DNA of 64,000 nucleotides from the NCBI GenBank assembly GCA_903854195.1, contig CAINVO010000021.1, positions 14,032 through 78,031 on the forward strand, in the 5' to 3' direction. A program made the position numbers and the translations under genes. Below the pieces are notes generated by a model. It searched no databases and had not been told where the DNA came from. It saw only the letters and a program-made list of their open reading frames with translations. Source of the stretch: an uncultured bacterium. GTDB lineage: Bacteria > Patescibacteriota > Minisyncoccia > Phycocordibacterales > CAINVO01. Of the stretch, positions 5,275 through 57,461 are shown in pieces. How positions within the stretch are numbered: position 1 is the stretch's first letter; every line of letters starts with the position of its first letter.

Positions 5275-5347
5275 GCGCCTGTAGCTCAATGGATAGAGCA
5301 CTTGTCTTCGGAACAAGGGGTTGTGGGTTCGAGTCCTGCCAGGCGCA
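5275..5347 (+). tRNA. tRNA-Arg (anticodon TCG), 73 nt, no encoded CCA
   Basis: Cloverleaf by eye: acceptor gcgcctg/caggcgc; D-arm gctc-aatggata-gagc; anticodon stem cttgt/acaag with loop ctTCGga; T-arm gtggg-ttcgagt-cctgc; discriminator A. Confidence 0.8.
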
Positions 5348-5508
5348 CATTTGCGGGTATCCTTATGTTTGTTTGTTATTAATTGACGATCTGCTTGTAT
5401 TGGGTGTCCCATATGCGACCCTATTGTTGTGTAAAATAGAAAATTAGGTATAATTGCAAACGAAACTAATGAGTAAATAGATGACCAGATGGTCCGTTAG
5501 TCGGAATT

Positions 5509-5579
5509 GCGGGTATGGTTTAGTGGTAGAACACATCCTTGCCAAGGATGAGACGGGAGTTCGATTCTCCCTACCCGCA
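5509..5579 (+). tRNA. tRNA-Gly (anticodon GCC), 71 nt, no encoded CCA
   Basis: Acceptor gcgggta/tacccgc; anticodon stem catcc/ggatg with loop ttGCCaa; T-arm gggag-ttcgatt-ctccc. Confidence 0.8.
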
Positions 5580-6029
5580 CAAATAGGTTAAGAACCAATT
5601 TCCATTAAAGACATACTTTGTCAGTTATAAAACATGTGGCAAAAGATTGCTCTCATTTTTACTCATTTCTAATCAATATTTGTGTAATGTCAATAAGTTG
5701 TTTTGTAAAATAACTTGAATTTAGACATGCGAATCCCCTTCTTTTTAGCCGTAACTTTAACTTAGGGTTGACACTCAAACTGTGGATAACTAGGTGGATA
5801 TGTGTATAAAAGACAGTCTTTTTGTTTGAAAATATGGCCTATATGTTTTTGTCTATTAGTGTAGAAAACGCCTAATTTTAAGGGTTTTTTTGGAAAAAGA
5901 CATGGAAAAAATGATGAATTTATGTTGTAAAAAGAATATGTTTCACGTGAAACTAATATTGACATATTTGCGGTCTAATTATTAAGATTTTATCTATATT
6001 TTAGTTAAAATTAATAGCCTATATGTTAA

Positions 6030-6449
6030 ATGTTAATCATGAAACAAATAAAAAATAGTAAATATTGGGGATTGGTTTGTGAAGAGATCGCAACTAATTA
6101 TTTAAAGAGAAAGGGTTATTGCCTAGTCGAGAGGAACTATTTAAAGAAATGTGGTGAAATTGATATTATTGTAGAGAAGGATGGTTTAATACATTTTGTT
6201 GAAGTAAAAGGTGTTATTCATGAAACAAATCCTAATAATGTTAATCGTGTAACCACTAGAAGCTTTGACTGCCATAGGGTGGAGGATAACCTATCATCTA
6301 GGAAACTTAACAGGCTAAAAAGGACAATTGGTGTTTATTTGTCCGAAAAGGCTACAACAGAAAATTGGTGTTTAGATGCAATCTTGATATATCTAAATCC
6401 TAAAAATCGGTCTGCAAGAGCTGTTTTCATGCCAAACATATTGATTTAG
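6030..6449 (+). CDS. YraN/UPF0102-family endonuclease-like protein (Holliday-junction-resolvase fold) with a C-terminal extension; alternative start at 6039
   Basis: 'WGLVCEEIATNYLKRKGYCLVERNYLKKCGEIDIIVEKDGLIHFVEVKGV' matches the YraN signature (G..GE..A..YL...GY.IL.RN.R...GEIDLI......VFVEVK). Confidence 0.55.
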   Translation: MLIMKQIKNSKYWGLVCEEIATNYLKRKGYCLVERNYLKKCGEIDIIVEKDGLIHFVEVKGVIHETNPNNVNRVTTRSFDCHRVEDNLSSRKLNRLKRTIGVYLSEKATTENWCLDAILIYLNPKNRSARAVFMPNILI

Positions 6450-6587
6450 TATTTTTAAATAATATAAGATTTTTAGTTTTTTAAGATGAGAGTCTTTTGT
6501 GTTTTTTCCTTTGTATATTGTTAATGCTGTGTTATGCTTATCGAACATTAGTTGATAGGTGTCATACTTGATGTTGATAGTTTGTAT

Positions 6588-6660
6588 CGGGGCGTGGTGT
6601 AACGGCTAACATTCCTGTTTTGGGAACAGGCGACTCCGGGTTCGAATCCCGGCGCCCCGA
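6588..6660 (+). tRNA. tRNA-Pro (anticodon TGG), 73 nt, no encoded CCA
   Basis: Acceptor cggggcg/cgccccg; anticodon stem cctgt/acagg with loop ttTGGga; T-arm ccggg-ttcgaat-cccgg. Confidence 0.8.
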
Positions 6661-6703
6661 CATTTATATATTGTTAGTATTAGTTTTCGGTTGAATTATT
6701 AAA

Positions 6704-7024
6704 ATGAAAAAATTTCAAGCAAAAAAAGAGGATTTTACCTGTGAAAAATGTGGAGCCTTTGTTAAGGGGGATGGTTATACAAACCATTGTCCCGTTTGTC
6801 TTTGGAGTAAACATGTAGATGTTAATCCTGGTGATAGAAGTGCAACTTGTGGGGGATTAATGGAGCCTGTTGCTGTTGAGGGTGGGGTAGATGGGTCGCT
6901 TATCCATAAATGTCTCCTGTGCGAACACACTAAAAGAAATAGAATACAAAAAAGAGATGATTTTTCTATGGTAATTGTGTTGTCTGAAAAAATAGCAAAA
7001 AAACTATCAAATCAGGCCAAATAG
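6704..7024 (+). CDS. RNHCP-domain zinc-ribbon protein
   Basis: Contains the 'YTNHCPVC' motif plus C-x2-C pairs (CEKCGAF, CLLCEH), resembling the Pfam RNHCP domain. Recalled from memory, not searched. Confidence 0.45.
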   Translation: MKKFQAKKEDFTCEKCGAFVKGDGYTNHCPVCLWSKHVDVNPGDRSATCGGLMEPVAVEGGVDGSLIHKCLLCEHTKRNRIQKRDDFSMVIVLSEKIAKKLSNQAK

Positions 7025-7065
7025 CTTGAAACAATTAAGAAAGGAGAAGTTCTAGTTGTTGATAA

Positions 7066-8379
7066 CTATCGGGCACTACTCAACAATTTTACAAGATTGG
7101 GCTTTGTACTTAAAGAAAAATGATTCTGAGCAATTTGGTTAGATAAAAAAGTGTTTAAATTATTACCTGTTTCCGAGGTAATTTCGTTGTTTATTTGACC
7201 GATAGATAATCCTTGGATTGTGTATTTTGTGCTTATATTGCTAGATAAAATTGAAGTAACTATCCCAACAAAACCGGCATTGTTTGTTATAGGACTTCCA
7301 GACAAACCTATTTGTCCTATAGTAGAAGGTGAGGATATAAAGGTTCCAATATTAAAGGTACTTTGAATATTTAAATTTTCACTTTGTTGTCCTAGACCAT
7401 TTAGGACCTGTTGATAACTTTTTGACCCTGCTGGGTAACCAGTAATGTTTATCGAGGTTCCACTTTGTAGATTTTGATACTGTCCAGACCCAGGAAGTTT
7501 GTAGTATGTATTTCCAGTTTTTAGGTTTGAAATTGATAATATGGCAAAATCATTTTCACCAGTTTCTAGACATTTAGATGGATCATTTATACACTTGTAG
7601 TTGCTTTCTACCCAAGTTGGAGAAATGTAAATAAGGGTAGGGGAGTTTGAAATTGTTTGCGCGGTAGTCCCTGCCCGTATTGAGCATTTAAGATTTTGAC
7701 CGGATGTAGTACCTACTAATAGGAGGTATTCAGCAACGTGTGCGTTTGTTAGGATATTCCCTTGTTCTGTGATGATTGCTCCACTGCCTGATACCATGGA
7801 TTGGTTGTTTCCAACTTGGTTGGTACATATTATATTAACAGTACTATCAGAAATGTTGCTTGAGGGGTTGAGATTTTGCGTTATTGTTGGATTGGTTGAA
7901 TTACTCTGGGGCAAACTCGTATTGTCTGTTGGCGTGTTTGGCTCAACATTTTTGTAGACCTTGTTAATTAAGGCATCTAATTCTTTAAGGGGATTTGATG
8001 TTGTTGCAGTTGGTTGTGCTGGAATTTTTATTACCGTTTTGCCCTTGTCGGTCTTGTTTGTTGAAGATGAAATATTCTCATTTTGGTTTAAAATTAGTAT
8101 TTTGAAGATACTTGAGTCGTTGTTTTGACTTGGAGCTATTGATTTTTCCAATGCCGATTTTGAAGAAAAATCTGAGCCTAGTAGGGGAAATATAGCATTT
8201 ACTGAAAGATCCCCAAGACCACCCTTTGAAGAGTTTGGTGTGTTGTTTTTTTGGATTGAAGTATTGTCTGTTTGATTCAAATTTATACTAGAAAAGAAAC
8301 TTGCAAAAAAACCAATAGAAATTAGAATATGAATTATACCCTTGCCAATCATAGGTATAATTGTATGGATCGAAGTCAT
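7066..8379 (-). CDS. Membrane-anchored trypsin-like (S1 family) serine protease with long Asn/Ser/Thr-rich low-complexity linkers
   Basis: N-terminal TM 'IHILISIGFFASFF'. Catalytic His in 'GNILTNAHV', Asp in 'GENDFAIL', Ser in 'GLSGSPI' (GDSGGP-like). Confidence 0.6.
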   Translation of the reverse strand: MTSIHTIIPMIGKGIIHILISIGFFASFFSSINLNQTDNTSIQKNNTPNSSKGGLGDLSVNAIFPLLGSDFSSKSALEKSIAPSQNNDSSIFKILILNQNENISSSTNKTDKGKTVIKIPAQPTATTSNPLKELDALINKVYKNVEPNTPTDNTSLPQSNSTNPTITQNLNPSSNISDSTVNIICTNQVGNNQSMVSGSGAIITEQGNILTNAHVAEYLLLVGTTSGQNLKCSIRAGTTAQTISNSPTLIYISPTWVESNYKCINDPSKCLETGENDFAILSISNLKTGNTYYKLPGSGQYQNLQSGTSINITGYPAGSKSYQQVLNGLGQQSENLNIQSTFNIGTFISSPSTIGQIGLSGSPITNNAGFVGIVTSILSSNISTKYTIQGLSIGQINNEITSETGNNLNTFLSNQIAQNHFSLSTKPNLVKLLSSAR

Positions 8380-8423
8380 AGCCTCTAGTATATCAGATAA
8401 ATAAATGATAATATGTCACCACT

Positions 8424-8494
8424 GCGGGATTAGTTTAATGGTAGAATAACAGTTTTCCAAACTGTGGGTGGGAGTTCGATTCTCCCATCCCGCA
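8424..8494 (+). tRNA. tRNA-Gly (anticodon TCC), 71 nt, no encoded CCA
   Basis: Acceptor gcgggat/atcccgc; anticodon stem acagt/actgt with loop ttTCCaa; T-arm gggag-ttcgatt-ctccc. Confidence 0.75.
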
Positions 8495-8534
8495 CAACCA
8501 ACGTCGACGTAAAAGGTCACCCATAATAATTATT

Positions 8535-11515: not shown

Positions 11516-11764
11516 TGGACAAAGCTAATTAGCTTGAAAAATTTTAAAAATTGAAACTTTTAGTAACATACTTAACTAAATTTTCTAATCTAACTAATCT
11601 AAGTCTCGCGCCCGACGGATTTTAGGATAAGGAAATCTTTGTTTGCTGTCTTGTAGGGAAAAACGGTATCAATCTTTGCGGTTTGTCTGAATGGGCAGAG
11701 CGGAATAATTAATAAATGATAATAATCCTATCTTACAAGAGATTTTTGATTTTGTAAAGTTAAT

Positions 11765-11803
11765 AAAAAACAGTGAAATGTTTAAAATTTCACTGTTTTT
11801 TGT
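11765..11803. terminator. Rho-independent terminator downstream of clpP (minus strand)
   Basis: aaaaaa-CAGTGAAAT-gtttaaa-ATTTCACTG-tttttt. Perfect 11-bp stem. Confidence 0.6.
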
Positions 11804-11820
11804 CTAATTTGATATGTTTT

Positions 11821-17359: not shown

Positions 17360-19150
17360 ATGCACATCGAAGAAAAACAATTAAAAGATTTTATTTTTGA
17401 TTCAGGTTTAGTTAGTCGTGACGATTTAGATGCTGCTCAAGGTGAAGCTATGAAAAGGGGACATTCTTTGGCAGATATATTAGTAAGTTCTGGAAAAATG
17501 TCAGAGGACGATTTGAGACGTACCCAAGCATATCTTTTGGGTATTCCTTTTGTTGGCCTTAAAAATCAAAAACTTGATTTTGCTGTTTTGTCACTTATTC
17601 CTGAACCTATTGCGAGGACTCATAATATAGTTGCTTTTAAAAAGAACGATGATTCCTTGGAGGTTGCCATGTTGGACACTGAGGACTTGAGTGCTATTGA
17701 TTTTATAAAAAAGAAGACTGGCTTAAAGATTTTGGCCCGGCTAACTGACACTGATTCAATAAAATCTGCACTTCTCCATTATCAAAAAAGTTTAAAAGCT
17801 GACTTCGGAGATATTATTCAGAAGGAGTCGTCAGTAATAAAAACAGTTGGCAATATTTCTATTGAGGACACTACAAACCCTGATGATTTGAAAAGAATAG
17901 CTGAAGACTTACCTGTTGTTCGTATTGTAGATACTCTTTTAAAACACGCAGTTCTCCAGGAGGCTTCAGATATTCATATTGAACAGATGGAAAATGAGGT
18001 TATAGTTAGATATCGTATTGATGGCGTGCTTCGAGATGCCATGATTTTGCCTAAAGCAGCAGGTGCCGGAATTACTGCAAGATTAAAGGTACTTTCTAGT
18101 TTGAAACTTGATGAAAAACGATTACCTCAGGATGGAAGATTCAAGATTGGATTAAACGGTGAGAATATATCTTTTCGTGTATCAACAATGCCAACTTATT
18201 TTGGAGAAAAAACGGTGATGCGCCTCCTTCGTGAAAATGTTTCTGGTTTTACCTTAGAAGGTTTGGGTTTTCATGGTGAGGGGCTTGAAATTTTGCACAA
18301 AGCTTCAAAGCTTACAACGGGGATGATTCTGACAACTGGCCCAACAGGTTCAGGAAAGACAACAACGCTTTATACTGTTCTAGATATTTTAAATACCCCA
18401 GGTGTGAATATTTCGACTATAGAAGACCCTGTTGAGTACCAGATGAAACGAATAAATCAAACTCAGGTTAAACCCGAAATTGGTTTTACATTTTCTACAG
18501 GACTAAGATCTTTGGTTAGACAAGATCCAGATATCATTATGGTTGGGGAAATTCGAGACAATGAAACAGCATCACTGGCTATTAATGCTGCTCTTACAGG
18601 TCACCTTGTGCTATCAACTCTTCATACAAACTCAGCGGCTGGTGCAATTCCAAGACTTATTGATATGAAATGTGAACCTTTTCTGATCTGCTCTACTGTA
18701 AACGTTATTATTGCTCAGAGATTAGTTAGAAAACTTGTTGGAACAAAAGAAAAGTATTTTTTAAAGAAAGATGAGATTATTTCTTTGGGCAAAAAAGCTA
18801 ATCTAGATAGGGTTTTAAAATCCTTGAAAGATGAAAGTATTGTTGCCCCTGATGCGGATTGGTCAAATATTTCTTTTTATAAATACAAAAATAATAATTA
18901 TGGATCGTCTTCTCCAAGTACGAATTCACCAACTGGAATCGAGGATGGGTTTGCTGGCCGGGTAGGAATATATGAGGTGCTTAAAGTTTCACCAGCTATT
19001 AAAGATTTAATAATAAAAGGTTCAAGTTCTGATGAGATAGAAAAGCAGGCAAGATTGGAAGGAATGATGACAATTCTTGAAGATGGAATATTCCATTGTG
19101 TGAAGGGTGTAACAACAATCGAAGAGGTTTTGAGGGTTGTTTCAGAGTAG
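17360..19150 (+). CDS. pilB: Type IV pilus assembly ATPase PilB / GspE family
   Basis: Two N-terminal GSPII_E_N-like domains, Walker A 'GPTGSGKTTTLY', Asp box and His box. Confidence 0.85.
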   Translation: MHIEEKQLKDFIFDSGLVSRDDLDAAQGEAMKRGHSLADILVSSGKMSEDDLRRTQAYLLGIPFVGLKNQKLDFAVLSLIPEPIARTHNIVAFKKNDDSLEVAMLDTEDLSAIDFIKKKTGLKILARLTDTDSIKSALLHYQKSLKADFGDIIQKESSVIKTVGNISIEDTTNPDDLKRIAEDLPVVRIVDTLLKHAVLQEASDIHIEQMENEVIVRYRIDGVLRDAMILPKAAGAGITARLKVLSSLKLDEKRLPQDGRFKIGLNGENISFRVSTMPTYFGEKTVMRLLRENVSGFTLEGLGFHGEGLEILHKASKLTTGMILTTGPTGSGKTTTLYTVLDILNTPGVNISTIEDPVEYQMKRINQTQVKPEIGFTFSTGLRSLVRQDPDIIMVGEIRDNETASLAINAALTGHLVLSTLHTNSAAGAIPRLIDMKCEPFLICSTVNVIIAQRLVRKLVGTKEKYFLKKDEIISLGKKANLDRVLKSLKDESIVAPDADWSNISFYKYKNNNYGSSSPSTNSPTGIEDGFAGRVGIYEVLKVSPAIKDLIIKGSSSDEIEKQARLEGMMTILEDGIFHCVKGVTTIEEVLRVVSE

Positions 19151-35722: not shown

Positions 35723-37864
35723 ATGGAAAGAGATTATTCACTCGAAAAAACACGTAACTTCGGTATCATTGCGCACATCGATGCTGGTAAAACAACTACA
35801 TCTGAGCGTATTCTTTATTATACTGGTATGAGTCATAAGATTGGTGAGGTTCACGAGGGTGAAGCTACAACTGACTGGATGGAACAAGAAAAAGAGCGAG
35901 GTATTACTATTACTGCCGCTGCCATTACTTGTTTTTGGAACCCATCATATATGGGCAAGGATCAATCACTAAAACATCGTTTTAATATTATTGATACACC
36001 TGGGCACGTAGATTTTACTGTAGAGGTGGAACGATCTCTTAAGGTGCTTGATGGAGGAGTTGTTGTTTTTGACGGTGTGGCCGGAGTAGAACCACAATCA
36101 GAGACAGTTTGGAGACAGGCAGATAAATATAACGTACCACGTGTTTGTTTCATAAATAAATTAGACCGAACAGGAGGCTCATTTGAGCGTTCTTATCAAT
36201 CAATTTTGGATCGTTTAAATAAAAATGCTGTCCGCATGCAGATTCCAATTGGAGAAGAAGAAAAATTTGAGGCTGTTATTGATCTTATGAAGATGAAAGC
36301 ATATTACTTCGAAGGTGATATGGGAATTAACGTTCGTGAAGATGAAATTCCAGAAGCTTATTTGGCTGATGCAAAAAAATATCGTGCAGAGCTTGTAGAG
36401 CGTATTGTAGAAAATGATGACGGTCTTATGTCAGCATATCTTGAAGGTAAGGAAATTTCTATTTCTGCTCTAAAAGAAACTCTCCGAAAGGCAACTATTG
36501 CAAATAAAATTTTCCCAGTGTTTACAGGTTCTGCTTTGAAAAACAGAGGAGTCCAACTTGTGCTTGATGCCGTTGTTGATTATCTACCATCACCACTAGA
36601 TGTTCCTCCAGTAAAAGGAACTGATCCAGCGAATGGTGAAGAAATTTTGAGACATGCATCTGACACTGAACCTTTTTCTGCTCTTGCTTTCAAGCTTCAG
36701 TCAGATCCGTTTGTAGGTCAGCTTACTTTCTTCCGCGTTTATTCAGGTACAGTAGAAGCTGGTTCTTATCTTTACAACTCAACAACAGGAAATAAGGAGC
36801 GCCTTGGACGTATTGTTAGACTTCAAGCAGATAAACGTGAAGAAGTTAAAAAAGTTTACGCTGGAGAAATTGCAGCAGCTGTAGGTCTTAAAGAAGCAAA
36901 AACATCTCACACTTTTTGTGATGAAAATAATCCAATTGTTCTTGACCCTATTAAGTTCGCAGAGCCAGTTGTGTCATTGCGTATTGAACCAAAGACAAAG
37001 GCTGATCAAGAGAAGATGGGTATGGCTTTGAAAAAACTTGGAGATGAGGATCCAACTTTCCGTATTTCTACAAACCCTGAAACTATGGAGACTATTATTT
37101 CAGGAATGGGGGAGCTTCACCTAGAAATCATGGTTGATCGTATGAAACGTGAATTCGGAGTTGAGGCAAATGTTGGTAAGCCTCAGGTTGCATATCGAGA
37201 AACAATTCTCGGCACAGCAGAAGCTGAACATAAATATATTAAACAGTCTGGAGGTAAAGGTCAGTATGGTCACGTTAAGATTACTTTGAAGCCTATGGAA
37301 AAACTTGAAGAAGGCGCAAAGATTCCTAAAAATGTTAAGAGATACGATGACTTTGAATTTATCGATAGTATCAAAGGAGGTGTTATTCCTCAGGAATTTA
37401 TTCCTGCAGTTGAAAAGGGTGTACGTGAAGCTATGGAGCGAGGTATCGTTGCCGGTTTCAAACTTGTAAATGTGTCTTGTGAACTTACATTCGGTTCTTA
37501 TCACGATGTTGACTCATCCGAAATCGCATATAAGATCGCAGGTTCCCAAGCCTTCCAGGAAGGTGCTAAACGAGCAAAACCAGTTATTCTAGAACCTATT
37601 ATGAAAGTAGAAGTTGTAACACCTGAGCAGTTCATGGGAGACATCACTGGTTCTCTTTCTGCAAAACGCGCTCAAATCGAAGGTATGGAAGATCGCGGCA
37701 TGAACAAAGCTATTAAGGCTATGGTTCCATTGTCTGAAATGTTTGGTTATACAACAGCTCTTCGTTCCATGACAGCAGGACGTGGATCAGCAACTATGGA
37801 GTTTGATCACTACGAAGTTGTTCCTCCAAATGTTGAGAAGACTATTGTTGAAACACGTAAGTAA
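35723..37864 (+). CDS. fusA: Elongation factor G; start trimmed to '[25 protein letters not shown]'
   Basis: G-domain motifs ([21 protein letters not shown]) and EF-G domains II-V. Confidence 0.9.
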
Positions 37865-37977
37865 TAAAAATATAAAAACCCTTTCGGTGACACGCATAAA
37901 TCTTTACTAAGATTTTGCTATGCTCGGAGCCAAGCTCCTGTGCAATGTCACCGAAAGGGTTTTTATATTTTTATTAC
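37861..37977. repeat. 32-bp perfect inverted repeat with a 53-bp spacer, overlapping the fusA stop codon
   Basis: 37861-37892 'gtaataaaaatataaaaaccctttcggtgaca' is the exact reverse complement of 37946-37977. Pairing continues imperfectly into the last fusA codons, giving about 44 bp with 2 mismatches. Confidence 0.7.
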
Positions 37978-38014
37978 TTACACGTTTCCCCATTATTATT
38001 AAGATTGGAAATAG

Positions 38015-38056
38015 AAAAAATCGGTCACGCGCTCGCGCGTGACCGATTTTGTTTTT
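38015..38056. terminator. Bidirectional rho-independent terminator between fusA (+) and the 38082..38828 gene (-)
   Basis: aaaaaa-TCGGTCACGCGC-tc-GCGCGTGACCGA-ttttgttttt. Perfect 12-bp GC-rich stem. Confidence 0.7.
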
Positions 38057-38081
38057 GTTGTTTTTCAACAACTTACTTTTG

Positions 38082-38828
38082 TTATGACCCGCCAGCGATC
38101 GCAGCATTTTTATCATCAACAAGTCTGTTGTAAAGGCTACGAAGTTCCTCGAAGCTTTTGTAAGTACCTCCGCCCATTGAATACTCCATACAAGCATAGA
38201 CCCCTTCAGGACTTTCCAACGCATCGTTTCCGATGAATAGTTGAAACTTCTGATCCGGAAATCCGCCAGATGAGATTCTCGAACAAAGTTCAGAGAGTAT
38301 CCCGACATTCCATTCGTCGTTCCTGTGCTCTTCACCCATGATGGCCCCTTCAATCAAATTCAAGCACCCAGAAACAAAGTGATATTCTGTTGGAATATAT
38401 ATGATCCGTGGAACATGATTGATAAGAAGAGTCCCTTGTATCCTTCCGAAGTAGAACGCCTTCTTTGTCATTCTTGGGCCTTGGTCATCTGACCTCATTC
38501 TGACATTGTGTTTTTTTACACCCACCAATACGTACTGTCCTTGGTTTTCATCAATTGTTTTTTTCAATCCAATTAATGTTTCAACAATCTCCTCATGGAA
38601 ACCAAAGGAAGATATAACACTGTCAGTGAAATCTTCTCCAGTGGTAATCAATCCTTTGCGAAGTTCAGCTAAAAGTCTGGCTTCTTTTTCGGATTGTCGG
38701 CTTTGGATTTCTTCAATGGCAGAATTTGACTCCGCTCTGATTTTTGTAACTTCACTTTTTGAAGCAGCTTGTTCCTGCCAAAAAGTTTCGATGTCTTTAA
38801 ACCCTACGGGTTTCTCTTGTTCACTCAT
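38082..38828 (-). CDS. Hypothetical protein (248 aa) with an N-terminal coiled coil
   Basis: No confident family. The C-terminal 'MGGGTYKSFEEL' has a faint resemblance to the LOG/SLOG 'PGGxGTxEEL' motif, which is insufficient for assignment. Has its own terminator. Confidence 0.4.
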   Translation of the reverse strand: MSEQEKPVGFKDIETFWQEQAASKSEVTKIRAESNSAIEEIQSRQSEKEARLLAELRKGLITTGEDFTDSVISSFGFHEEIVETLIGLKKTIDENQGQYVLVGVKKHNVRMRSDDQGPRMTKKAFYFGRIQGTLLINHVPRIIYIPTEYHFVSGCLNLIEGAIMGEEHRNDEWNVGILSELCSRISSGGFPDQKFQLFIGNDALESPEGVYACMEYSMGGGTYKSFEELRSLYNRLVDDKNAAIAGGS

Positions 38829-38904
38829 TATGTGTATTTCTGTTCACAAATCTACTCTGAAAACAAAAGAAGTCAATATTTATAAAATATAAATATGATA
38901 AAAA

Positions 38905-38956
38905 TAAAAGAAAAGACCAGTCATACGTTTCCGTGCGACTGGTCCGTTTTTTTTTG
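38905..38956 (-). terminator. Rho-independent terminator after the 38987..39520 gene
   Basis: GACCAGTC-atacgtttccgtgc-GACTGGTC, followed on the + strand by tttttttt and preceded by aaaag (A-run). Confidence 0.55.
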
Positions 38957-38986
38957 GTAAAAACTTGTTAGGTTCAGTAAACTGAA

Positions 38987-39520
38987 TCATTCCTCTTCAG
39001 CGATGCGCCTGAAATGTTGATGCATTTTTTCTTTAAGTTTGCTGAATTCGTGGACGATCATTCCACCAGAATCATTGATGAAAAATTCAACCTGAAGATT
39101 AACTTTTGCACCCTCCTCTCCTGTCTGACGAAAGTCACTTCGATATGCAATAATAATTTTTCCGAGTGAATATGCATATCCAATTTCTGAAGCAGTGCCA
39201 CTGTCAACTTCCTGTCCATCAAGAAGTGCGAGAACGATTCTTGAACAACGTATTGCTTCGACGTTTCGTTCTCCAGTGATTTTGTTTGCCTCTTGAAATC
39301 TTCTGTCACGGATTTTTCCAAGTGGAAGTTTGAGTGCCTTTTCGAAAAGTTCGAGTGGCGCCTTTTCAAATGGATTGATTACTTCGTACCCAATTTTTTT
39401 GAGCACCGGAGTAATCTTTTTTTGAAGAAAAAATCTCCCTGCCTCTGAAAACCCAAAGGGGTTAGCAAGGTAAACTCCGGGTTTTTTATACCCGATTTCT
39501 GTTGTAGTGTTACTTTTCAT
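38987..39520 (-). CDS. Nucleoside 2-deoxyribosyltransferase-like protein (PF05014 family)
   Basis: 'PGVYLANPFGFSEAGR' and 'DSGTASEIGYAYSLGKIIIAY' match the NDT signature, including the catalytic Glu in the DxGTxxExGxA box. Confidence 0.6.
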   Translation of the reverse strand: MKSNTTTEIGYKKPGVYLANPFGFSEAGRFFLQKKITPVLKKIGYEVINPFEKAPLELFEKALKLPLGKIRDRRFQEANKITGERNVEAIRCSRIVLALLDGQEVDSGTASEIGYAYSLGKIIIAYRSDFRQTGEEGAKVNLQVEFFINDSGGMIVHEFSKLKEKMHQHFRRIAEEE

Positions 39521-39618
39521 TTTATATCAGTTCAATCTAGATTCCATATTAAGGAAAAAAGTAGAATAAGCAAGCTTATAGGGTCTTCACCCCGGTATTT
39601 TAATTTTTGCTTTTTAAA

Positions 39619-39671
39619 ATAAAAAACCATCAATTTAAGTTGTGAAGCTTAAATTGATGGTTTGTTTTTTT
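39619..39671. terminator. Bidirectional terminator after the 39723..41411 gene
   Basis: aaaaaa-CCATCAATTTAAG-ttgtgaag-CTTAAATTGATGG-tttgttttttt. Perfect 15-bp stem. Confidence 0.6.
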
Positions 39672-39722
39672 GAGTTTTTCTTTCGGGTCAGTGAAACTGT
39701 TTCGTAATCCCGACCTTTTTCA

Positions 39723-41411
39723 TTAGAGTTTGAACGATACCGAGACTCCTTCAATTTTGGAAACTTTCTTCAAAGCACTTTCCACTAAAGGGTGTTTTTT
39801 TGGTAATCCAAATCCAATTAAAAACTGTCGCCTCATTCCATGATGCCTAAAATGAAATGATGCCATATTCACTTCCATTTCCTTGAATATAGAAGAAATT
39901 TCATTTAGGAGGCCTCTACGGTCTGTTGATCTGTTGAAGCTGACAATGGCAACCCTTTCTGGATTACGTTCTTCCATAAGGGCTATGAGCTCATCAAAGA
40001 GGTTGTTTGATTCTTTAATGTATCGCGGCCCAACATATTTTGCAGCTTCGTCGAAGAAGTTGCCGAGAGGGGCATTGTCGCCGCTCTTTATACAATCTGC
40101 TATACAGTTGCGTACTCTGGTAGCAATCTCCAAGGACCGATCAATACTTCTTAGAGCATAGATGTTTTCTGTCATTATTCCAGGATAAACGGCACGATTT
40201 TTTAGCATTCGGCCATATTTGCACAATGAAATGTTGTAGAAACCTGTGGCTAATTTCATATACTCTCCAATAGGTATGCCAGACTCTTTTAAAGAAAGGC
40301 ACTCTATTAAATTGTAAAAATGTTCTTTACCTTGGATTTCACCCATTATTTCATCATGCCTCTCTGCGTTTATCCATACAGCCTTGGCTCCTGTCGAAAG
40401 AAGGAATTCCTCTACCCAGGCTTTTTTGCCATTTAACCTCCCGTTGCAGACGGCTATTGCTCGACCTTTCCAGCTCCTTGCGGATGGGGGAAAGGTTGGG
40501 TGAAACCCAATTACTTGAGCCTTTGTCGCAAGCATGGCTTCCATTGCTGGAGCTTTTACAGATGTGATGTCAAAGACTAGCTGGTCTTCCTTAAGATGCT
40601 TAGAAATCTTTGAAATAAGCCCTGGGGTCTCTTTTGTTGGGGTACAGAATACAACAACATCGGATCTCCTTATTATTCGCCATATTTTTGACGGATGGGT
40701 ATCTTCACTGATTGACTCAGTTTTGCAACCAAGTTCTTTGAACCTCCTTATAAATGCTAGTCCAAACTTACCCTTTCCTCCAAATACGGCTATATTTAAG
40801 GGTTCAACATAAGGATCGTGATAAAAAACACCGAAAGTGGTGCTATTTCGCGGACAATCCTGAATTTGTTCCTCTAGCACTTTTAATCCATATTTTTTTG
40901 CAATTTTCAGACTTCCTATTGCTGCGATTGTTCTGGATTCTATGCATGTGGCAGTTCTCCTTGCAGCTAAGGCTGTGGATTTTGAGGCTAAAAACCTCAA
41001 TTTCTTAAGGTGAGCATGTTTTTTTATGTTCCCTCTGCATTGATCGTAAGCCTCTCTTTTCGTACTTATAAGTGTTATTTCCTTTACGGATTTAATGCTT
41101 GGATGTACGAGCAAGTTGTGACTTATTTGAAGGGTGATTTTGTCAATTTGTCCAATGTTTGGATTGTTTTTAAGTAATTTTTTGCATACCCTTGTGACGC
41201 CCATAATTTCTCCACAAGTGGAATTATTTATGGGTAGAACTGCAAAAACTTCACTTTCTCTTAGTCTTTTTATTATTTCTCTGTGTGAGTCACACAAAGT
41301 TACAAAAAATTGACCATTTTTCCACTGATAATGCTTTGCAAAAGCAAAAGCTGCCACTTGGCCATTTGTTCCTGCTGGTCCTAGGGCCAGTATTTCTCTA
41401 ATTTCATTCAT
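39723..41411 (-). CDS. Fusion protein: prephenate dehydratase-like domain, prephenate/arogenate dehydrogenase-like NAD-binding domain, and a C-terminal ACT domain
   Basis: N-terminal 'ILALGPAGTNGQVAA', 'LPINNSTCGEI', 'ISTKREAYDQC' and 'AAIGSLKIAKKYGLKVLEEQIQDCPRNSTTF' are PDT-like. Middle 'IAVFGGKGKFGLAFIRR...VFDITSVKAPAMEAM...ERHDEIMGEI' is TyrA-like. C-terminal 'RVAIVSFNRSTDRRGLLNEISSIFKEMEVNMASF' is ACT-like. Confidence 0.6.
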   Translation of the reverse strand: MNEIREILALGPAGTNGQVAAFAFAKHYQWKNGQFFVTLCDSHREIIKRLRESEVFAVLPINNSTCGEIMGVTRVCKKLLKNNPNIGQIDKITLQISHNLLVHPSIKSVKEITLISTKREAYDQCRGNIKKHAHLKKLRFLASKSTALAARRTATCIESRTIAAIGSLKIAKKYGLKVLEEQIQDCPRNSTTFGVFYHDPYVEPLNIAVFGGKGKFGLAFIRRFKELGCKTESISEDTHPSKIWRIIRRSDVVVFCTPTKETPGLISKISKHLKEDQLVFDITSVKAPAMEAMLATKAQVIGFHPTFPPSARSWKGRAIAVCNGRLNGKKAWVEEFLLSTGAKAVWINAERHDEIMGEIQGKEHFYNLIECLSLKESGIPIGEYMKLATGFYNISLCKYGRMLKNRAVYPGIMTENIYALRSIDRSLEIATRVRNCIADCIKSGDNAPLGNFFDEAAKYVGPRYIKESNNLFDELIALMEERNPERVAIVSFNRSTDRRGLLNEISSIFKEMEVNMASFHFRHHGMRRQFLIGFGLPKKHPLVESALKKVSKIEGVSVSFKL

Positions 41412-41510
41412 AACTTACAATCTTTTCTCTCAATTTTTGTCAAAATTCTATTGAAAACTCTGAGGCGATACTACGCTACTCATGGATAAAGTCAAAACCG
41501 TAAAAATAAT

Positions 41511-41538
41511 TTGACTTTCCAAAGGTATTTGCTATGAT
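41511..41538 (+). promoter_or_regulatory. Candidate sigma-70-type promoter for tuf and the downstream S10 genes
   Basis: TTGACT-16 nt-TATGAT, ~200 nt upstream of the tuf ATG. A 9-bp perfect hairpin (aagtttaac/gttaaactt, 41688..41717) sits just before the tuf start. Confidence 0.4.
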
Positions 41539-41736
41539 GACCCGTATCGCGTTTTGCGCTTTTTTTGTCTACGCTGAGAAATTGTTTTCCAATTACTTAG
41601 CTGGTGCAGACCAAGTGGGGCAGAATCAAGATAAAAGTCATTTTATTATCATTCATCAATAATCATATAAGTGCTAGGTGGTAAAGTTTAACAAGTTCTC
41701 GCGCGTTAAACTTTGATACTTAGCCAAAAAAAACAT

Positions 41737-45051: not shown

Positions 45052-45891
45052 ATGAAATCCTATAAACCAACATCCCCATCACGTCGACAAATGAGTAATA
45101 TTTCTTATAGAGATGTTATCACTGCTACTACACCCCATAAAGCTCTTACAAAGGGTTTTAAGCGTTCTGTTGGTCGCAACAACCAAGGTGTTATTACTAC
45201 TCGCCATAAAGGTTCTGGTCACAAAAGAGTTTTCAGAGATATAGATTTTAAATACACAAAACTAGATATTCCTGCAACTATTTCAACTATTGAGTATGAT
45301 CCAAACCGATCAGCTTTTATTTCTCTTGTTACTTATAAGGATGGTGAGAAAAAATATTCTATTCTTCCAAAATCATTAAACGTTGGCGACACTTTTATTG
45401 TGTCAGAAAAGGCTGAAATTAAGGCTGGAAATCGTCTCCCACTTAAAAATATCCCAGTTGGTACATTTGTATACGGAGTAGAAGTCAAACCAAAAGGCGG
45501 TGCATCTATTGCGCGATCAGCTGGAAATTATGCTGAAGTTGTTGCCCATGACGAAGGATATGCTCAAATCAAAATGCCTTCATCAGAAGTTCGTAAGGTT
45601 AAGGATGAGTGTTGGGCATCAGTCGGAGAAGTTTCAAATGATGAAAATCGTCTGCAAAATTATGGAAAAGCAGGACGTAGTCGTTGGAAAGGTATCCGCC
45701 CTACAGTTAGAGGTACAGCACAGAACCCAGTAGACCACCCACATGGAGGAGGAGAAGGACGTCAGGGTCGTGGTCGCCGTCGCGCAATCTCAGTTTACGG
45801 CAAACCAACAGGAAAGGGACAGAAATCTCGACATCCTAAGAAATATTCAAATAAATTTATTGTAAAGCGAAGAAAAGTAGGAAAGAAATAA
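45052..45891 (+). CDS. rplB: 50S ribosomal protein L2
   Basis: 'GRNNQGVITTRHKGSGHKR' and 'VRGTAQNPVDHPHGGGEG' match L2. Confidence 0.9.
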   Translation: MKSYKPTSPSRRQMSNISYRDVITATTPHKALTKGFKRSVGRNNQGVITTRHKGSGHKRVFRDIDFKYTKLDIPATISTIEYDPNRSAFISLVTYKDGEKKYSILPKSLNVGDTFIVSEKAEIKAGNRLPLKNIPVGTFVYGVEVKPKGGASIARSAGNYAEVVAHDEGYAQIKMPSSEVRKVKDECWASVGEVSNDENRLQNYGKAGRSRWKGIRPTVRGTAQNPVDHPHGGGEGRQGRGRRRAISVYGKPTGKGQKSRHPKKYSNKFIVKRRKVGKK

Positions 45892-45925
45892 AAAAAAGAC
45901 CCTCAAATGAGGGTCTTTTTTTGTG
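45892..45925 (+). terminator. Rho-independent terminator immediately after rplB, in the position normally occupied by the rplB-rpsS junction
   Basis: aaaaaa-AGACCCTCA-aat-TGAGGGTCT-ttttttt. Confidence 0.65.
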
Positions 45926-45940
45926 CAGACGCACGTGTTT

Positions 45941-45996
45941 AAAATAAGAAAAACCCACCAGCTGTGACAGGTTTTCCTGTTTAAGGTGGTGGGTTT
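45941..45996 (-). terminator. Rho-independent terminator for the minus-strand 45999..46301 gene
   Basis: On the minus strand: ACCCACCA-...-TGGTGGGT followed by ttttcttatttt. An inner acagg/cctgt hairpin is also present. Confidence 0.5.
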
Positions 45997-45998
45997 GA

Positions 45999-46301
45999 TT
46001 AACTCAGAATGCCGCAACTTCCTTTGCTTGGGATCCAGAGTACTGCTTCTGGCCATTTTAATGGCGATAGGGTGATGTTTTGAGGGAATCTTGCCACAAT
46101 TCCGTCAGGGAAGCTTATGAGCTCAGTCACGACCCCTACTAATGTTTCCCAGTGGCCTAGGAATTTATATGGAATGATTAGTTGGCTGCCATCTAGGACA
46201 GCGCGAATTAATTGGTTTTCAGTAGGGATGTTTATTCTCTGAACACCAATGAATATACTTGCTGGGTTTAGTGGGTAACCATTTTCGTCAGTTACTTTCA
46301 T
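45999..46301 (-). CDS. Hypothetical protein (100 aa) inserted, antisense to the operon, between rplB and rpsS; locally elevated GC
   Basis: Strong SD (TAAGGAG, 6 nt upstream of the ATG). Own terminator. No recognisable family. Confidence 0.45.
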   Translation of the reverse strand: MKVTDENGYPLNPASIFIGVQRINIPTENQLIRAVLDGSQLIIPYKFLGHWETLVGVVTELISFPDGIVARFPQNITLSPLKWPEAVLWIPSKGSCGILS

Positions 46302-46450
46302 GTAATCTCCTTAGTTATCTGGACGGTTTATCCGGACAGATTGGTTTTTCAAGAAAGGGTTTTGCGTAATGTAAAACCATCACTTTCTGACTATACTTTA
46401 ATACAAAAAGTTCGCATTGTCAATACATAGAGTAAACTTGTTAAAATTTA

Positions 46451-46560
46451 AGCCACACATATAGCTCTTTTTGAGAACCTTGCGCAGGCTGACGGGCCGA
46501 GAAGAGCAAAATCCCAGCAGGGATTTATGTGTGTGATCAAAAAGAGCTATATGTGTGGCT
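46451..46560. repeat. 24-bp perfect inverted repeat with a 62-bp spacer (110-bp hairpin element) upstream of the rpsS promoter
   Basis: 46451-46474 'agccacacatatagctctttttga' is the exact reverse complement of 46537-46560. The spacer holds a 7-bp hairpin, aaatccc-agca-gggattt. Confidence 0.7.
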
Positions 46561-46566
46561 GATAAT

Positions 46567-46595
46567 TTGACATTAAATACATCCCTTGATAGTAT
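46567..46595 (+). promoter_or_regulatory. Candidate sigma-70 promoter re-initiating rpsS-rplV-rpsC...
   Basis: TTGACA-17 nt-TAGTAT, 42 nt upstream of the rpsS ATG. Confidence 0.5.
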
Positions 46596-46636
46596 GGGCA
46601 TCTAAGTCCAATACGGGCTTTTTATTTACACATCAA

Positions 46637-46978
46637 ATGACAAGATCACTCAAAAAAGGACCATACGTTGACGAAAAACTACTCAAAAAAATTGAGGGTA
46701 AAAAGCCGGTAGAAACTGGTGTTATTAAGACATGGGCACGAAGAAGCCAGATTTCACCAGAAATGGTTGGATTTATCTTCGGTGTGCACAATGGCAAGCA
46801 GCACCTAGAGGTTCTTGTATCAGAGGAGATGGTAGGACACAGACTCGGTGAATTTTCTCCTACAAAGAAATTTATCCGTCATGGAGGTAAAATGCAAAAG
46901 GAACAAGAAGCTGCTAAGAAAGATGCAGAGGTTGCAGCAGCAAAGGCGGCAAAATCAACAGTTGCAGTTAAAAAATAA
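46637..46978 (+). CDS. rpsS: 30S ribosomal protein S19 (start trimmed to '[12 protein letters not shown]'; Lys/Ala-rich C-terminal tail)
   Basis: '[16 protein letters not shown]...[25 protein letters not shown]' matches S19. Confidence 0.85.
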
Positions 46979-50360: not shown

Positions 50361-50370
50361 ATAAGAAATT

Positions 50371-50406
50371 AAAAACACCCCCTTCGCAAGATGGGGGTGT
50401 TTTTAA
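50371..50406 (+). terminator. Rho-independent terminator inside the spc operon, after rplE
   Basis: aaaaa-CACCCCC-ttcgcaagat-GGGGGTG-tttttaatt. Confidence 0.55.
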
Positions 50407-50454
50407 TTAAATTTGTTTGTAACACATAAAAAACACTTAAATGACCCTAAATAT

Positions 50455-54541: not shown

Positions 54542-54579
54542 AAAAAAACGCCGGAACAATTGTTCCGGCGTTTTTTTTA
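54542..54579. terminator. Bidirectional rho-independent terminator after secY
   Basis: aaaaaaa-CGCCGGAACAATTGTTCCGGCG-tttttttt. Perfect 11-bp palindrome. Confidence 0.7.
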
Positions 54580-56666: not shown

Positions 56667-56726
56667 TTAAACAGTAGGCAAAAACAAAAAAGCATTAGCG
56701 AAATACTCGCTAATGCTTTTTTGTTT

Positions 56727-57461
56727 TTACAAACTCTCCCACAATATCTCAAATATAGATCTGAATACGTCTACCATTGGGGGGATAGCGATGACTACAC
56801 ATAGAGCATCTACTTCAGGGCCCACAATTACAATTTTATCGTTGTAAATATCGATAGTACTTTTGAACTTGTACTTTTCTGGCATGTATTTATATTCACG
56901 GAGGAGAGATGTGTCGTTTTGACCTTCTTCACCCATTGAGTCACCAGACAAAAGTAGTTTTACTCGAGTGCTATTTTCCGCTCGCTTTTTTCTGAAGTCT
57001 AGAAAGAAATCACGATCAGTGTTTAACCAAGTCGAAGCACTTCCAATAATGTAATATTCTTTATTTTTGTATTCACTTAGGATTTCATCATAGAAAAGTT
57101 TAAGTTCATCTTTTGATTTGATGAATCTCACACCGTAAATACTCTTGTCGGTTTTGGCTAAGCCCTCTAGATAGGGGATTATTTTATTAAAAGACTTAAT
57201 CTTTCTTTCAAAAAGAGTGCCTAGTTGTTGTGGTTTAACAGGATAAAAGAGTTTTTTACCTCCTTGTTCATAGACAGTGACTATTCCTTGGGAGATGAGT
57301 CTTTCGAGGATTGGATAGACCGTGGTCCTCTTTATATTTACTTCGCTAGCCAAAGATGTAGCGCTGCAGCCACCAGTTTTTAAAAGGCCTACATAAAGGT
57401 CTATTTCTTGCTCAGAAAGTCCCAAATCCTTCAATATATCTAGATAGTTATTAGTATTCAT
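56727..57461 (-). CDS. TrmB-family transcriptional regulator (second copy, paralog of 54588..55376)
   Basis: 'LSEQEIDLYVGLLKTGGCSATSLASEVNIKRTTVYPILERLISQGIV'. Confidence 0.7.
   Translation of the reverse strand: MNTNNYLDILKDLGLSEQEIDLYVGLLKTGGCSATSLASEVNIKRTTVYPILERLISQGIVTVYEQGGKKLFYPVKPQQLGTLFERKIKSFNKIIPYLEGLAKTDKSIYGVRFIKSKDELKLFYDEILSEYKNKEYYIIGSASTWLNTDRDFFLDFRKKRAENSTRVKLLLSGDSMGEEGQNDTSLLREYKYMPEKYKFKSTIDIYNDKIVIVGPEVDALCVVIAIPPMVDVFRSIFEILWESL

Follow-up and report, generated by a model that had tools for sequence, protein, structure and literature searches.

A family of structured intergenic repeats with a conserved cap and variable palindromic stems in Patescibacteria

E1, a 110-bp palindromic element directly upstream of the rpsS promoter, is one copy of a family of structured repeats that is interspersed through the genomes of Patescibacteria. 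It was analysed within a 64-kb stretch of patescibacterial DNA, referred to here as the window, which carries a second copy, E2, at the end of fusA. The reading that we favour, and to which we give about an even chance of being right, is that the family is a non-autonomous, selfish or semi-domesticated repeat whose stem is templated by the element itself, in place. The family is apparently undescribed, with no match in Rfam 15 and no description in the literature that could be searched. The genomes of Patescibacteria are tiny and streamlined, and the group makes up a large share of bacterial diversity, yet its non-coding elements are nearly uncharted. A covarying repeat that spans the phylum and occurs in tens of copies per ~1-Mb genome would be a new entry among bacterial structured repeats.

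The 24-nt arms of E1 (left arm AGCCACACATATAGCTCTTTTTGA; Table 1) are exact reverse complements around a structured 62-nt spacer, as stated in the initial annotation of this DNA, and an arm match with three or fewer mismatches was reached in 0 of 100 dinucleotide shuffles of the window. The 24-mer arm has no other site in the 64-kb window. With mismatches allowed, the repeat grows to 36 nt per arm at 89% (46439-46474 and 46537-46572), and each strand has a far stronger predicted fold than shuffled sequence (z = -9.1 and -8.3). The hairpin that had been noticed within the spacer is likewise present, AAATCCC-AGCA-GGGATTT at 46509-46526, and reads AAAUCCC-UGCU-GGGAUUU in minus-strand RNA. E1 had also been placed correctly upstream of the rpsS promoter, its arm being 6 nt from the -35 box and 76 nt from the rpsS ATG at 46637. 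The left side of the decayed outer stem carries a degenerate mirror copy of this -35 box (TTAACA, minus strand). Two divergent promoters flank E1, which is upstream of each; the second is a promoter-like site that fires away from E1. In three independent metagenome assemblies of the window strain the E1 region is 100% identical and in the same orientation, and these assemblies therefore carry no information on turnover of the element. Minor orientation forms are hidden in consensus assemblies, and the orientation of E1 is the same in all three.

Table 1. Coordinates of the two elements and of the promoters beside E1 within the window
Feature	Position	Strand	Description
E2 5' arm, 36 nt perfect	37857..37892	+	overlaps the stop of fusA and the two sense codons before it
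E2 core, 53 nt	37893..37945	+	homologue of the E1 core; R1/R2 54.6 / 52.5 bits
E2 3' arm	37946..37981	+	imperfect continuation to 38000
Promoter-like site of the divergent 100-aa ORFan	46395..46423	-	TTGACA, 17 nt, TAAAGT; fires away from E1
E1 outer decayed stem, left	46439..46450	-	imperfect pairing with 46561-46572
E1 P1 arm, 24 nt	46451..46474	-	3' arm on the family-sense (minus) strand
E1 core, 62 nt	46475..46536	-	order: junction, P2, junction, P3, junction
E1 P3	46487..46498	-	short GC-rich hairpin GGCC-CGUC-AGCC, one C.A mismatch
E1 P2	46506..46530	-	inner hairpin plus short ACA/UGC extension, bulged U
E1 P1 arm, 24 nt	46537..46560	-	5' arm on the minus strand
E1 outer decayed stem, right	46561..46572	-	overlaps the rpsS -35 box TTGACA (46567-46572)
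rpsS promoter, sigma-70-like	46567..46595	+	TTGACA, 17 nt, TG-extended TAGTAT (46590-46595)

The inverted repeat after fusA had been reported at 32 bp. It is real but larger, with perfect arms of 36 bp that extend to 55 nt at 87% when mismatches are admitted, around a spacer of 53 nt. The fusA stop codon TAA (37862-37864) lies within the 5' arm of E2, and the imperfect extension runs back to 37838 inside the gene. As the left arm includes the 3' codons and the stop of fusA, the right arm is an inverted copy of coding sequence. A separate canonical terminator is found downstream of E2 at 38017-38057. The two elements are 8.6 kb apart and hence dispersed, not tandem.

Alignment of the two spacers revealed that the E1 core on the minus strand is homologous to the E2 core on the plus strand. 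The former reads CA-CAUAAAUC-CCUGCUGG-GAUUUUGCU-CUU-CUCGG-(hairpin)-CCUGCGCAA and the latter CG-CAUAAAUC-UUUACUAA-GAUUUUGCU-AUG-CUCGG-(hairpin)-CCUGUGCAA. Two double changes, CC/GG to UU/AA, separate the inner hairpins of E1 and E2 with pairing kept. Compensatory changes in relatives had been proposed as a check, and covariation across the family is strong. The long arms of E1 and E2 have nothing in common in sequence. Because the cores are homologous and the arms unrelated, the conserved unit is the loop and not the inverted repeat. The similarity between the two elements is found in the cores, in opposite orientation, and not in the termini, which had been proposed for alignment. That E1 and E2 form one class of structured, multi-copy repeats was borne out by core homology, copy number and covariation together.

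A 20-base pattern derived from the E1 and E2 cores was used to scan one genome per GTDB species. This returned at least 80 loci, and E1 is not a single-copy element. Among the matches listed, about 65 loci from 32 assemblies are true members of the family with the full flanking consensus present, and about 15 matches in other phyla are without the flanking consensus and correspond in number to chance expectation. Nearly all of the true loci are labelled Patescibacteria, Saccharibacteria, Paceibacterota, Parcubacteria, Nomurabacteria, Zambryskibacteria or Minisyncoccia, the labels being those of the deposited MAGs; the range beyond Patescibacteria was sampled through this single strict pattern, by which divergent members such as those of the closest relative (L085) are under-sampled. 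One GTDB genome has at least 13 copies and several have 5-6, counts that are lower bounds as they derive from one strict pattern with at least 80 loci listed. The element is also present on two contigs labelled Nitrospira, which may have been binned wrongly. Ribosomal protein L4 of the window has 78% identity to its counterpart in a 'Candidatus Pacebacteria' MAG.

A covariance model of the family, R1, found 84 copies in 521 kb of family loci, with up to 4 per 8 kb. The E1 core (46472-46539, minus strand) scored 81.2 bits with R1 and 73.5 bits with R2, a model built from other genomes only and containing no window sequence. When run on the 64-kb window with filters off, R2 recovered E1 (E = 4.5e-24, minus strand) and E2 (52.5 bits, E = 1.8e-16, plus strand). 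Besides these two, no further copies were found in the window by nhmmer or by the two covariance models with filters off, and a weak pattern match at 17560 was discarded as a plain hairpin at chance level. Viral contigs gave 0 matches to the strict or the wide core pattern, so that there is no sign of a phage vector. The Rfam comparison that had been suggested for both elements gave no family in either mode. At the gathering thresholds of Rfam 15 the window returned 4 tRNAs only and 17 loci with long or medium forms returned nothing, and in E-value mode E1 and one long form gave noise (E > 0.5) at scores far below gathering. Full-text searches of the literature found no description of the element.

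The fold of the family is a conserved three-way junction of ~55 nt that is closed by a long perfect stem, P1. P2 is a hairpin of 8-10 bp with a tetraloop, the apical three pairs of which covary across the family, and P3 is ~10 nt long in E1 and E2, a rod of ~50 nt in other copies, or 115-190 nt with a conserved sequence of its own. For the short core, 98.3% of the cells pair across 77 distinct sequences and double changes are seen in 14 of 14 pairs; 0 of 500 shuffles or slid registers came near the observed covariation. In the long form 98.2% of the cells pair and 13 of the 34 predicted pairs have double changes (0 of 500 shuffles). Taken by itself the short core is ambiguous as to strand, its G.U cells being about as numerous as its non-standard cells, which fall mostly at one pair (column 10/38, A.C in E1). 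The long form has 11 G.U cells on the core strand, with one U.G pair in 7 of the 10 sequences. As these pairs are mismatches on the opposite strand, the core strand is the folding strand, an assignment that derives mainly from the ten long-form sequences. One subtype, present in six assemblies, has a conserved asymmetric internal loop in P1, in which TTTCTC (5' strand) faces TCAAC (3' strand). The loop is a strand-specific feature, and the helices on either side of it vary in sequence. At its junctions E1 is similar in sequence to this subtype.

In the 54 distinct copies that were compared, the perfect part of P1 spanned 10-55 bp, with a median of 16.5 and an A+T content of 77%, and the arm sequences were different in nearly every copy. 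Some copies in one genome have partly common arms. In one such pair the related arms are set apart by three substitutions and one indel, each of them present in both arms. At the orthologous fusA site of L085 the palindrome mirrors that genome's own fusA end (TATTGTAGAAAATAGAA, against GAAACACGTAAGTAA in the window), and in a further relative, L086, the conserved -35 region of the rpsS promoter (TTTGACATTAAAT, identical in the window) itself forms the adjacent arm, with a perfect mirror on the far side. As the arms mirror adjacent DNA, be it the 3' codons of fusA or the rpsS -35 box, they must have been made in place, presumably through copying from arm to arm by template switching or gene conversion. 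Mismatches in the outer arms were A.C in 19 cases versus G.U in 3 on the core strand, an excess of A.C that is the opposite of what RNA-level selection on P1 predicts and that argues against such selection on this decaying outer part.

Processes that keep palindrome arms identical while lineages diverge are known from palindrome gene conversion, quasipalindrome template switching and the flip-flop hairpins of plastids, where hairpins at gene 3' ends can also invert their loops. The same process is invoked here for the P1 arms. These are general DNA processes, however, and not an element family, and none of them involves a conserved structured cap. The combination of a conserved cap with a changing stem that would be self-templated offers a natural setting in which to study how palindromes arise and stay perfect and how neighbouring non-coding DNA is overwritten, in this case by stems that replace their flanks with mirror copies of gene ends and promoter boxes.

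Copies of the family are intergenic. Both neighbours could be scored for 56 copies, and 52 of these adjoin the 3' end of one gene or more. By context, with genes taken from a simple ORF caller, 25 of these 56 are in sense between co-directional genes, 14 are convergent, 13 antisense and 4, including E1, divergent. Both orientations thus occur, with a sense bias of roughly 2:1 after the upstream gene, and copies antisense to both neighbours make up from 13 of 56 to about a third. The 5' arm often begins at the stop codon or overlaps with it, and nested, truncated and back-to-back copies exist. No consistent target-site duplication flush with the arm ends was found in 39 copies, the short matches observed being those expected by chance for 16 offsets. 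Given this and the lack of a partner gene near E1 and E2, it is from distribution alone that we infer mobility. The element is small, non-coding and multi-copy (2 in 64 kb, at least 13 in one genome, 84 in 521 kb) and to that extent has the traits of a MITE. The initial annotation had likened it to one, a comparison that was abandoned in its strict sense because the terminal repeats are not conserved between copies and no target-site duplication accompanies them.

Comparison with the relatives indicates that copies are gained and lost, occupancy differing from genome to genome. The rplB-rpsS gap of L085 is 81 bp long and contains neither an ORF nor E1. Three model matches are present in L085, after rpsG, upstream of tuf and after rplE, together with a long inverted repeat after fusA that is not matched by the model. 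Unlike L085, the window has no element upstream of tuf. L086 has a full copy upstream of tuf (one model match) and long palindromes unmatched by the model after fusA, after rplB and upstream of rpsS, of which those after fusA and rplB are shorter and have 27-nt spacers resembling P3-only versions of the core. Since the intergenic DNA of the relatives is too diverged (~70% identity in genes), exact insertion points at empty sites are not definable. Several of the elements in L085 and L086 lie on both sides of islands with gene content that differs between the genomes; the islands of the window have an element on one side only. The association with insertion junctions that had been proposed thus recurs in three genomes, but probably reflects the use of whatever intergenic gap is tolerated at the end of a gene (52 of 56). 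As island borders are the only sizeable non-coding gaps in the ribosomal cluster, a need for such gaps explains the link as well as a causal role would.

The rpsS promoter is not part of the element. It is kept in relatives without the element and is therefore older than the insertion. E1 itself is most likely a passenger without transcription, brought in by the insertion that this lineage carries between rplB and rpsS or added later, and its sole visible interaction with rpsS is the overlap of its decaying outer arm with the -35 box. The neighbours of E1 and E2 are fusA, an unknown 248-aa protein, rplB, a 100-aa ORFan and rpsS, and a domain scan of these five proteins found no transposase, reverse transcriptase, integrase or other partner gene. 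The 100-aa ORFan (45999-46301) matches no Pfam family and has a single homologue (62% identity) that sits in another context without the element, and a tie of this ORF to E1 was accordingly rejected. A 67-aa ORF across E1 (46398-46601, minus strand) was treated as spurious because its reading frame runs straight through the palindrome.

Under the favoured reading of a selfish or semi-domesticated repeat, the selected part would be the compact three-way-junction cap, consisting of P2, an expandable GC-rich P3 and the long closing P1. The sequence of P1 would not be inherited with the family and would instead be regenerated locally, one arm being copied from the other via intrastrand template switching or arm-to-arm gene conversion nucleated at the stable cap. 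Arm copying in place would leave P1 perfectly Watson-Crick paired, different in each copy and growing outward over its flanks. The family would settle at transcription-unit boundaries, mostly just past stop codons, as a non-autonomous selfish repeat. Co-transcribed copies, such as E2 in the 3' UTR of fusA, would give rise to a long double-stranded RNA rod with a conserved cap, and by analogy with Correia and ERIC elements such a rod would plausibly be a target of RNase III or of an RNA-binding protein, with an effect on transcript ends. An obligatory role as RNA is weakened by the roughly one third of copies that are antisense and by E1 being probably untranscribed. Conservation of the core over deep lineages, with covariation and the internal loop, could on the other hand reflect a host function instead of selfishness.

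A possible, if unlikely, alternative is that the family moves as DNA, its single-stranded three-way junction being recognised by a transposase or recombinase encoded elsewhere (HUH/RAYT or other) in a REPIN- or IS200/IS605-like manner, with the RNA fold incidental. Copies in both orientations relative to genes, nested, truncated and clustered copies, arms of perfect Watson-Crick pairs with G.U nearly absent, the location of E1 outside any predicted transcription unit and the differing occupancy of the same sites in relatives all speak for such movement, and G.T wobbles are possible in single-stranded DNA and so compatible with the strand asymmetry. It sits poorly with termini that are not conserved and with the lack of a target-site duplication, of a conserved target sequence flanking the arms outside one subtype and of a transposase gene near E1 or E2. 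P2 and P3 are moreover dissimilar, unlike the paired end hairpins of IS200/IS605, and covarying P3 expansions of 100-190 nt are more typical of a functional RNA domain. A bolder form of the selfish repeat, which we rate as unlikely, is a self-propagating element of a new kind. Its structured cap, whether RNA or single-stranded DNA, would make a perfect stem for itself from the adjoining DNA by fold-back or template-switch copying, without terminal repeats or a target duplication, perhaps with a dedicated Patescibacteria protein that binds the cap and the TTTCTC/TCAAC loop. Such an element could both mark and mediate the exchange of islands at hot spots such as those between fusA and tuf and between rplB and rpsS.

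A host-functional RNA appears doubtful. The family would in that case be a non-coding RNA acting in trans or in cis and bound by a dedicated Patescibacteria protein, with P1 as a processing stem, as in the RNase III-cut precursors of rRNA, and with copies kept by selection. Copy number and positions vary between related genomes, however, many copies are antisense or, like E1, outside transcription units, no promoter accompanies the copies, and degenerate, truncated and P3-only versions exist. These observations were weighed against conservation of the core with covariation across classes of the phylum, the conserved asymmetric loop in P1 of one subtype, G.U pairs of the long form on one strand only, the ~2:1 sense bias after the upstream gene and the presence of a separate canonical terminator in only 3 of 54 copies.

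It is improbable that the hairpins are recombination or cassette-boundary sites that mark and mediate the insertion or exchange of gene islands in a loosely attC-like way. Integron attC sites are 57-141 nt long, lie 3' of genes and fold on one strand, with a variable terminal structure that is sometimes branched; the base of their stem is conserved (R and L boxes, extrahelical bases) and the tip varies. The family likewise lies just 3' of genes, has a strand-specific fold and keeps structure more than sequence, its stems being variable, and several L085 and L086 elements flank both sides of variable islands in the ribosomal cluster. In contrast to attC, it is the tip that is conserved and the stem that is variable, cassette arrays are not seen and the five neighbouring proteins that were scanned include no integrase. 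Most of the 56 scored copies are at ordinary gene ends not known as islands, and window islands have the element on one side only. As r-protein operons are nearly devoid of other intergenic space, an association with islands is expected for any element that needs a gap.

An rpsS leader or rpsS-specific cis-regulator, an ordinary terminator and a chance palindrome are essentially excluded, and an invertible promoter switch is very unlikely, even though E1 lies 6 nt from the rpsS -35 box and the arms of E2 resemble a bidirectional terminator (A-run, GC-rich stem, T-run). The cis-regulatory role for rpsS that had been raised earlier fails because E1 is upstream of the -35 box with its family-sense strand antisense to rpsS, and the same core recurs after fusA and in dozens of unrelated contexts. 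As for an intrinsic terminator, E1 is absent from terminator-like sites and no U-tract follows the arms in E1 or in the family, the 8 nt after the 3' arm containing 2.85 T family-wide versus a background of 2.45. The order of A-run and T-run in the arms is mixed, and E2 has its separate terminator. A canonical terminator within 120 nt downstream is present in 3 of 54 copies, and the element is hence usually the sole hairpin at the gene end. If E1 were an inverton, the invertible segment would be 62 bp only; its core is without a plausible promoter, and the three consensus assemblies, in which minor forms would be hidden, have the same orientation. A promoter in the core was rejected since the distance from the -35-like TTGCGC to AGCAAAAT is very different in the short and long forms (the presumed spacing varies by >100 nt). 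Chance is excluded by the dinucleotide shuffles, of which 0 of 100 match.

Several known repeat classes resemble the family in part. Correia elements (NEMIS) of Neisseria and ERIC elements (IRU) of enterobacteria are non-coding, multi-copy intergenic palindromes of ~100-150 bp that occur in either orientation and are often co-transcribed. Their transcripts form long hairpins that RNase III or RNase E cleaves, and -35 or -10 boxes of neighbouring genes can come from their ends. The family is likewise a multi-copy intergenic palindrome found in both orientations, and the -35 box of rpsS overlaps with the outer arm in E1. Correia and ERIC elements are, however, conserved over their full length, including terminal repeats of 26 bp, and have a TA target duplication, whereas here only the cap is conserved and shows covariation of the RNA type, the stems are copied from the flanks and there is no target duplication. 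REP, BIME and REPIN sequences are mobilised by RAYT and are thought to be stabilisers of mRNA 3' ends or selfish elements. As in this family they are extragenic, form hairpins at gene ends and occur in many copies per genome and in both orientations. The inverted arms of a REPIN are the conserved REP sequence and its loop is variable; assignment to REP/REPIN was rejected as the arrangement here is reversed, with a conserved cap and variable arms, and neither a GTAG-type foot nor a RAYT gene near E1 or E2 was identified.

Retron non-coding RNAs share with the family a closing duplex (a1/a2), formed by flanking inverted repeats, and two hairpins, one small and conserved, the other very variable in length. 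Retrons are single-copy and adjoin their own reverse transcriptase. A retron was rejected here as no reverse transcriptase is found among the neighbours of E1 and E2 and the element is present in tens of copies per genome. By inspection, the consensus does not contain the CUGAUGA...GAAA core of a hammerhead ribozyme, and no match to the Rfam models of ribozyme classes or tRNA was obtained, so that ribozyme and tRNA-like assignments were likewise dropped.

[quoted passage not shown] TIGR units form tandem arrays beside a Tas gene, and their loops are box C/D motifs around variable spacers (PMC12045711). The family has the variable palindromic stems and conserved short motifs in common with these units. 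It was not assigned to TIGR-Tas arrays since its copies are dispersed, its loop is conserved and its consensus lacks a RUGAUGA/CUGA pair. The covariance model of the family is usable as a marker for Patescibacteria contigs, in which assemblies are likely to break at the long perfect palindromes.

The fusA-tuf and rplB-rpsS junctions of the ribosomal gene cluster are foreign-gene hot spots in the lineage of the window organism. Comparison of both regions with the closest relative (L085) and two further relatives (L086 and L087) showed that the gene content of these islands varied from genome to genome. In the window these islands code for an unknown protein of 248 aa along with a nucleoside deoxyribosyltransferase and a PDT/PDH fusion; in L085 they contain a 234-aa ORF and PDT/PDH, in L086 three unknown ORFs and in L087 two PG_binding proteins. 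Both tuf and rpsS retained their own conserved promoter. In the window, the rpsS 5' leader contains a short hairpin with a T-run after it, AAGTCCAATACGGGCTT-TTTATTTACACA, which was terminator-like by terminator scan; a comparable hairpin and T-run lies 3' of the rpsS promoter in all three relatives. This hairpin may act in attenuation within the leader or serve as a site of r-protein autoregulation.

The 100-aa ORF adjoining E1, the 110-bp palindrome upstream of rpsS, is an ORFan whose sole homologue (62% identity) was found on a 678-bp metagenome contig, L084, in a genomic context that differs from that of the window. The L084 copy has a strong promoter resembling the one in the window and a 5' leader that is likewise long and resembles the window's, with AAGGAGATTA at its end.

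Ordinary gene-end hairpins in the window genome are also long: an A-run and a T-run lengthen the pairing, which brings each arm to 14–29 nt. Those of the window look like bidirectional terminators. The three-way-junction core that defines the repeat family of E1 was absent from all seven such hairpins listed for the window. Across the 64 kb, only four tRNA genes reached the gathering score of an Rfam family, and no Rfam matches of any kind were obtained in the 17 scanned loci of relatives (126 kb).

Coordinates of features in the window and in loci from other genomes
Feature	Location	Coordinates	Remark
Ordinary gene-end hairpins	window	11756-11810, 38017-38057, 39616-39671, 45891-45922, 50367-50408, 54542-54577, 56673-56735
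tRNA genes	window	5275-8495	Arg-TCG, Gly-GCC, Pro-TGG, Gly-TCC (Rfam)
Junction regions	window	37865-41712, 45892-46636
rpsS leader hairpin and T-run	window	46596-46636
	L085	11945-11995
	L086	13838-13870
	L087	12108-12140
100-aa ORF	window	45999-46301	minus strand
Homologue of 100-aa ORF	L084	352-657
CACACATA	window	46454-46461	E1 arm
	window	46526-46533	5' junction of E1 core
Long perfect palindromes without covariance-model match	L085	4456-4572
	L086	2159-2255, 11930-12028, 13690-13819
Nested or neighbouring family copies	L069	4615-4895
	L078	2400-2660

The E1 arm and the 5' junction of the E1 core have an 8-mer, CACACATA, in common (shuffle p ~0.03), and repeats D2 and I3 from the window repeat search represent this same arm-core similarity. 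The 8-mer in the arm might be the vestige of an older, overwritten copy, or might be due to chance. Across 54 family copies (loci L004-L082 and the window), core-strand mismatches at the decaying outer arm ends comprised 19 A.C, 3 G.U and 29 others.

The palindromes in L085 and L086 that the covariance model of the core did not match have arms of 20–36 bp and short spacers. Two of the spacers, CGCTCCGGGCCGCTAGGCCGAGTCCTA and CGCTCCGGGGCGCTTGCCCGAGTCTTA, both of 27 nt, are mutually homologous with one compensatory change, and since their reverse complements resemble the CUCGG-P3 portion of the core, the palindromes carrying them may be P3-only miniatures of the family. Two nested palindromes were observed at one of the unmatched sites.

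Apart from L033 and L074, two contigs of one MAG labelled Nitrospira sp. SF2_9 (JBEBJM01) with copies of the long form, in which P3 is expanded, the family is restricted to Patescibacteria. These contigs may be mis-binned. The study behind JBEBJM01 also includes a Parcubacteria MAG, JBEBJP01, in which the family is present. In one Parcubacteria genome a family element sits inside the P2 hairpin of a second copy, with a third copy in opposite orientation beside the nested pair, and at another locus two copies lie back to back, separated by a gap of ~25 nt.
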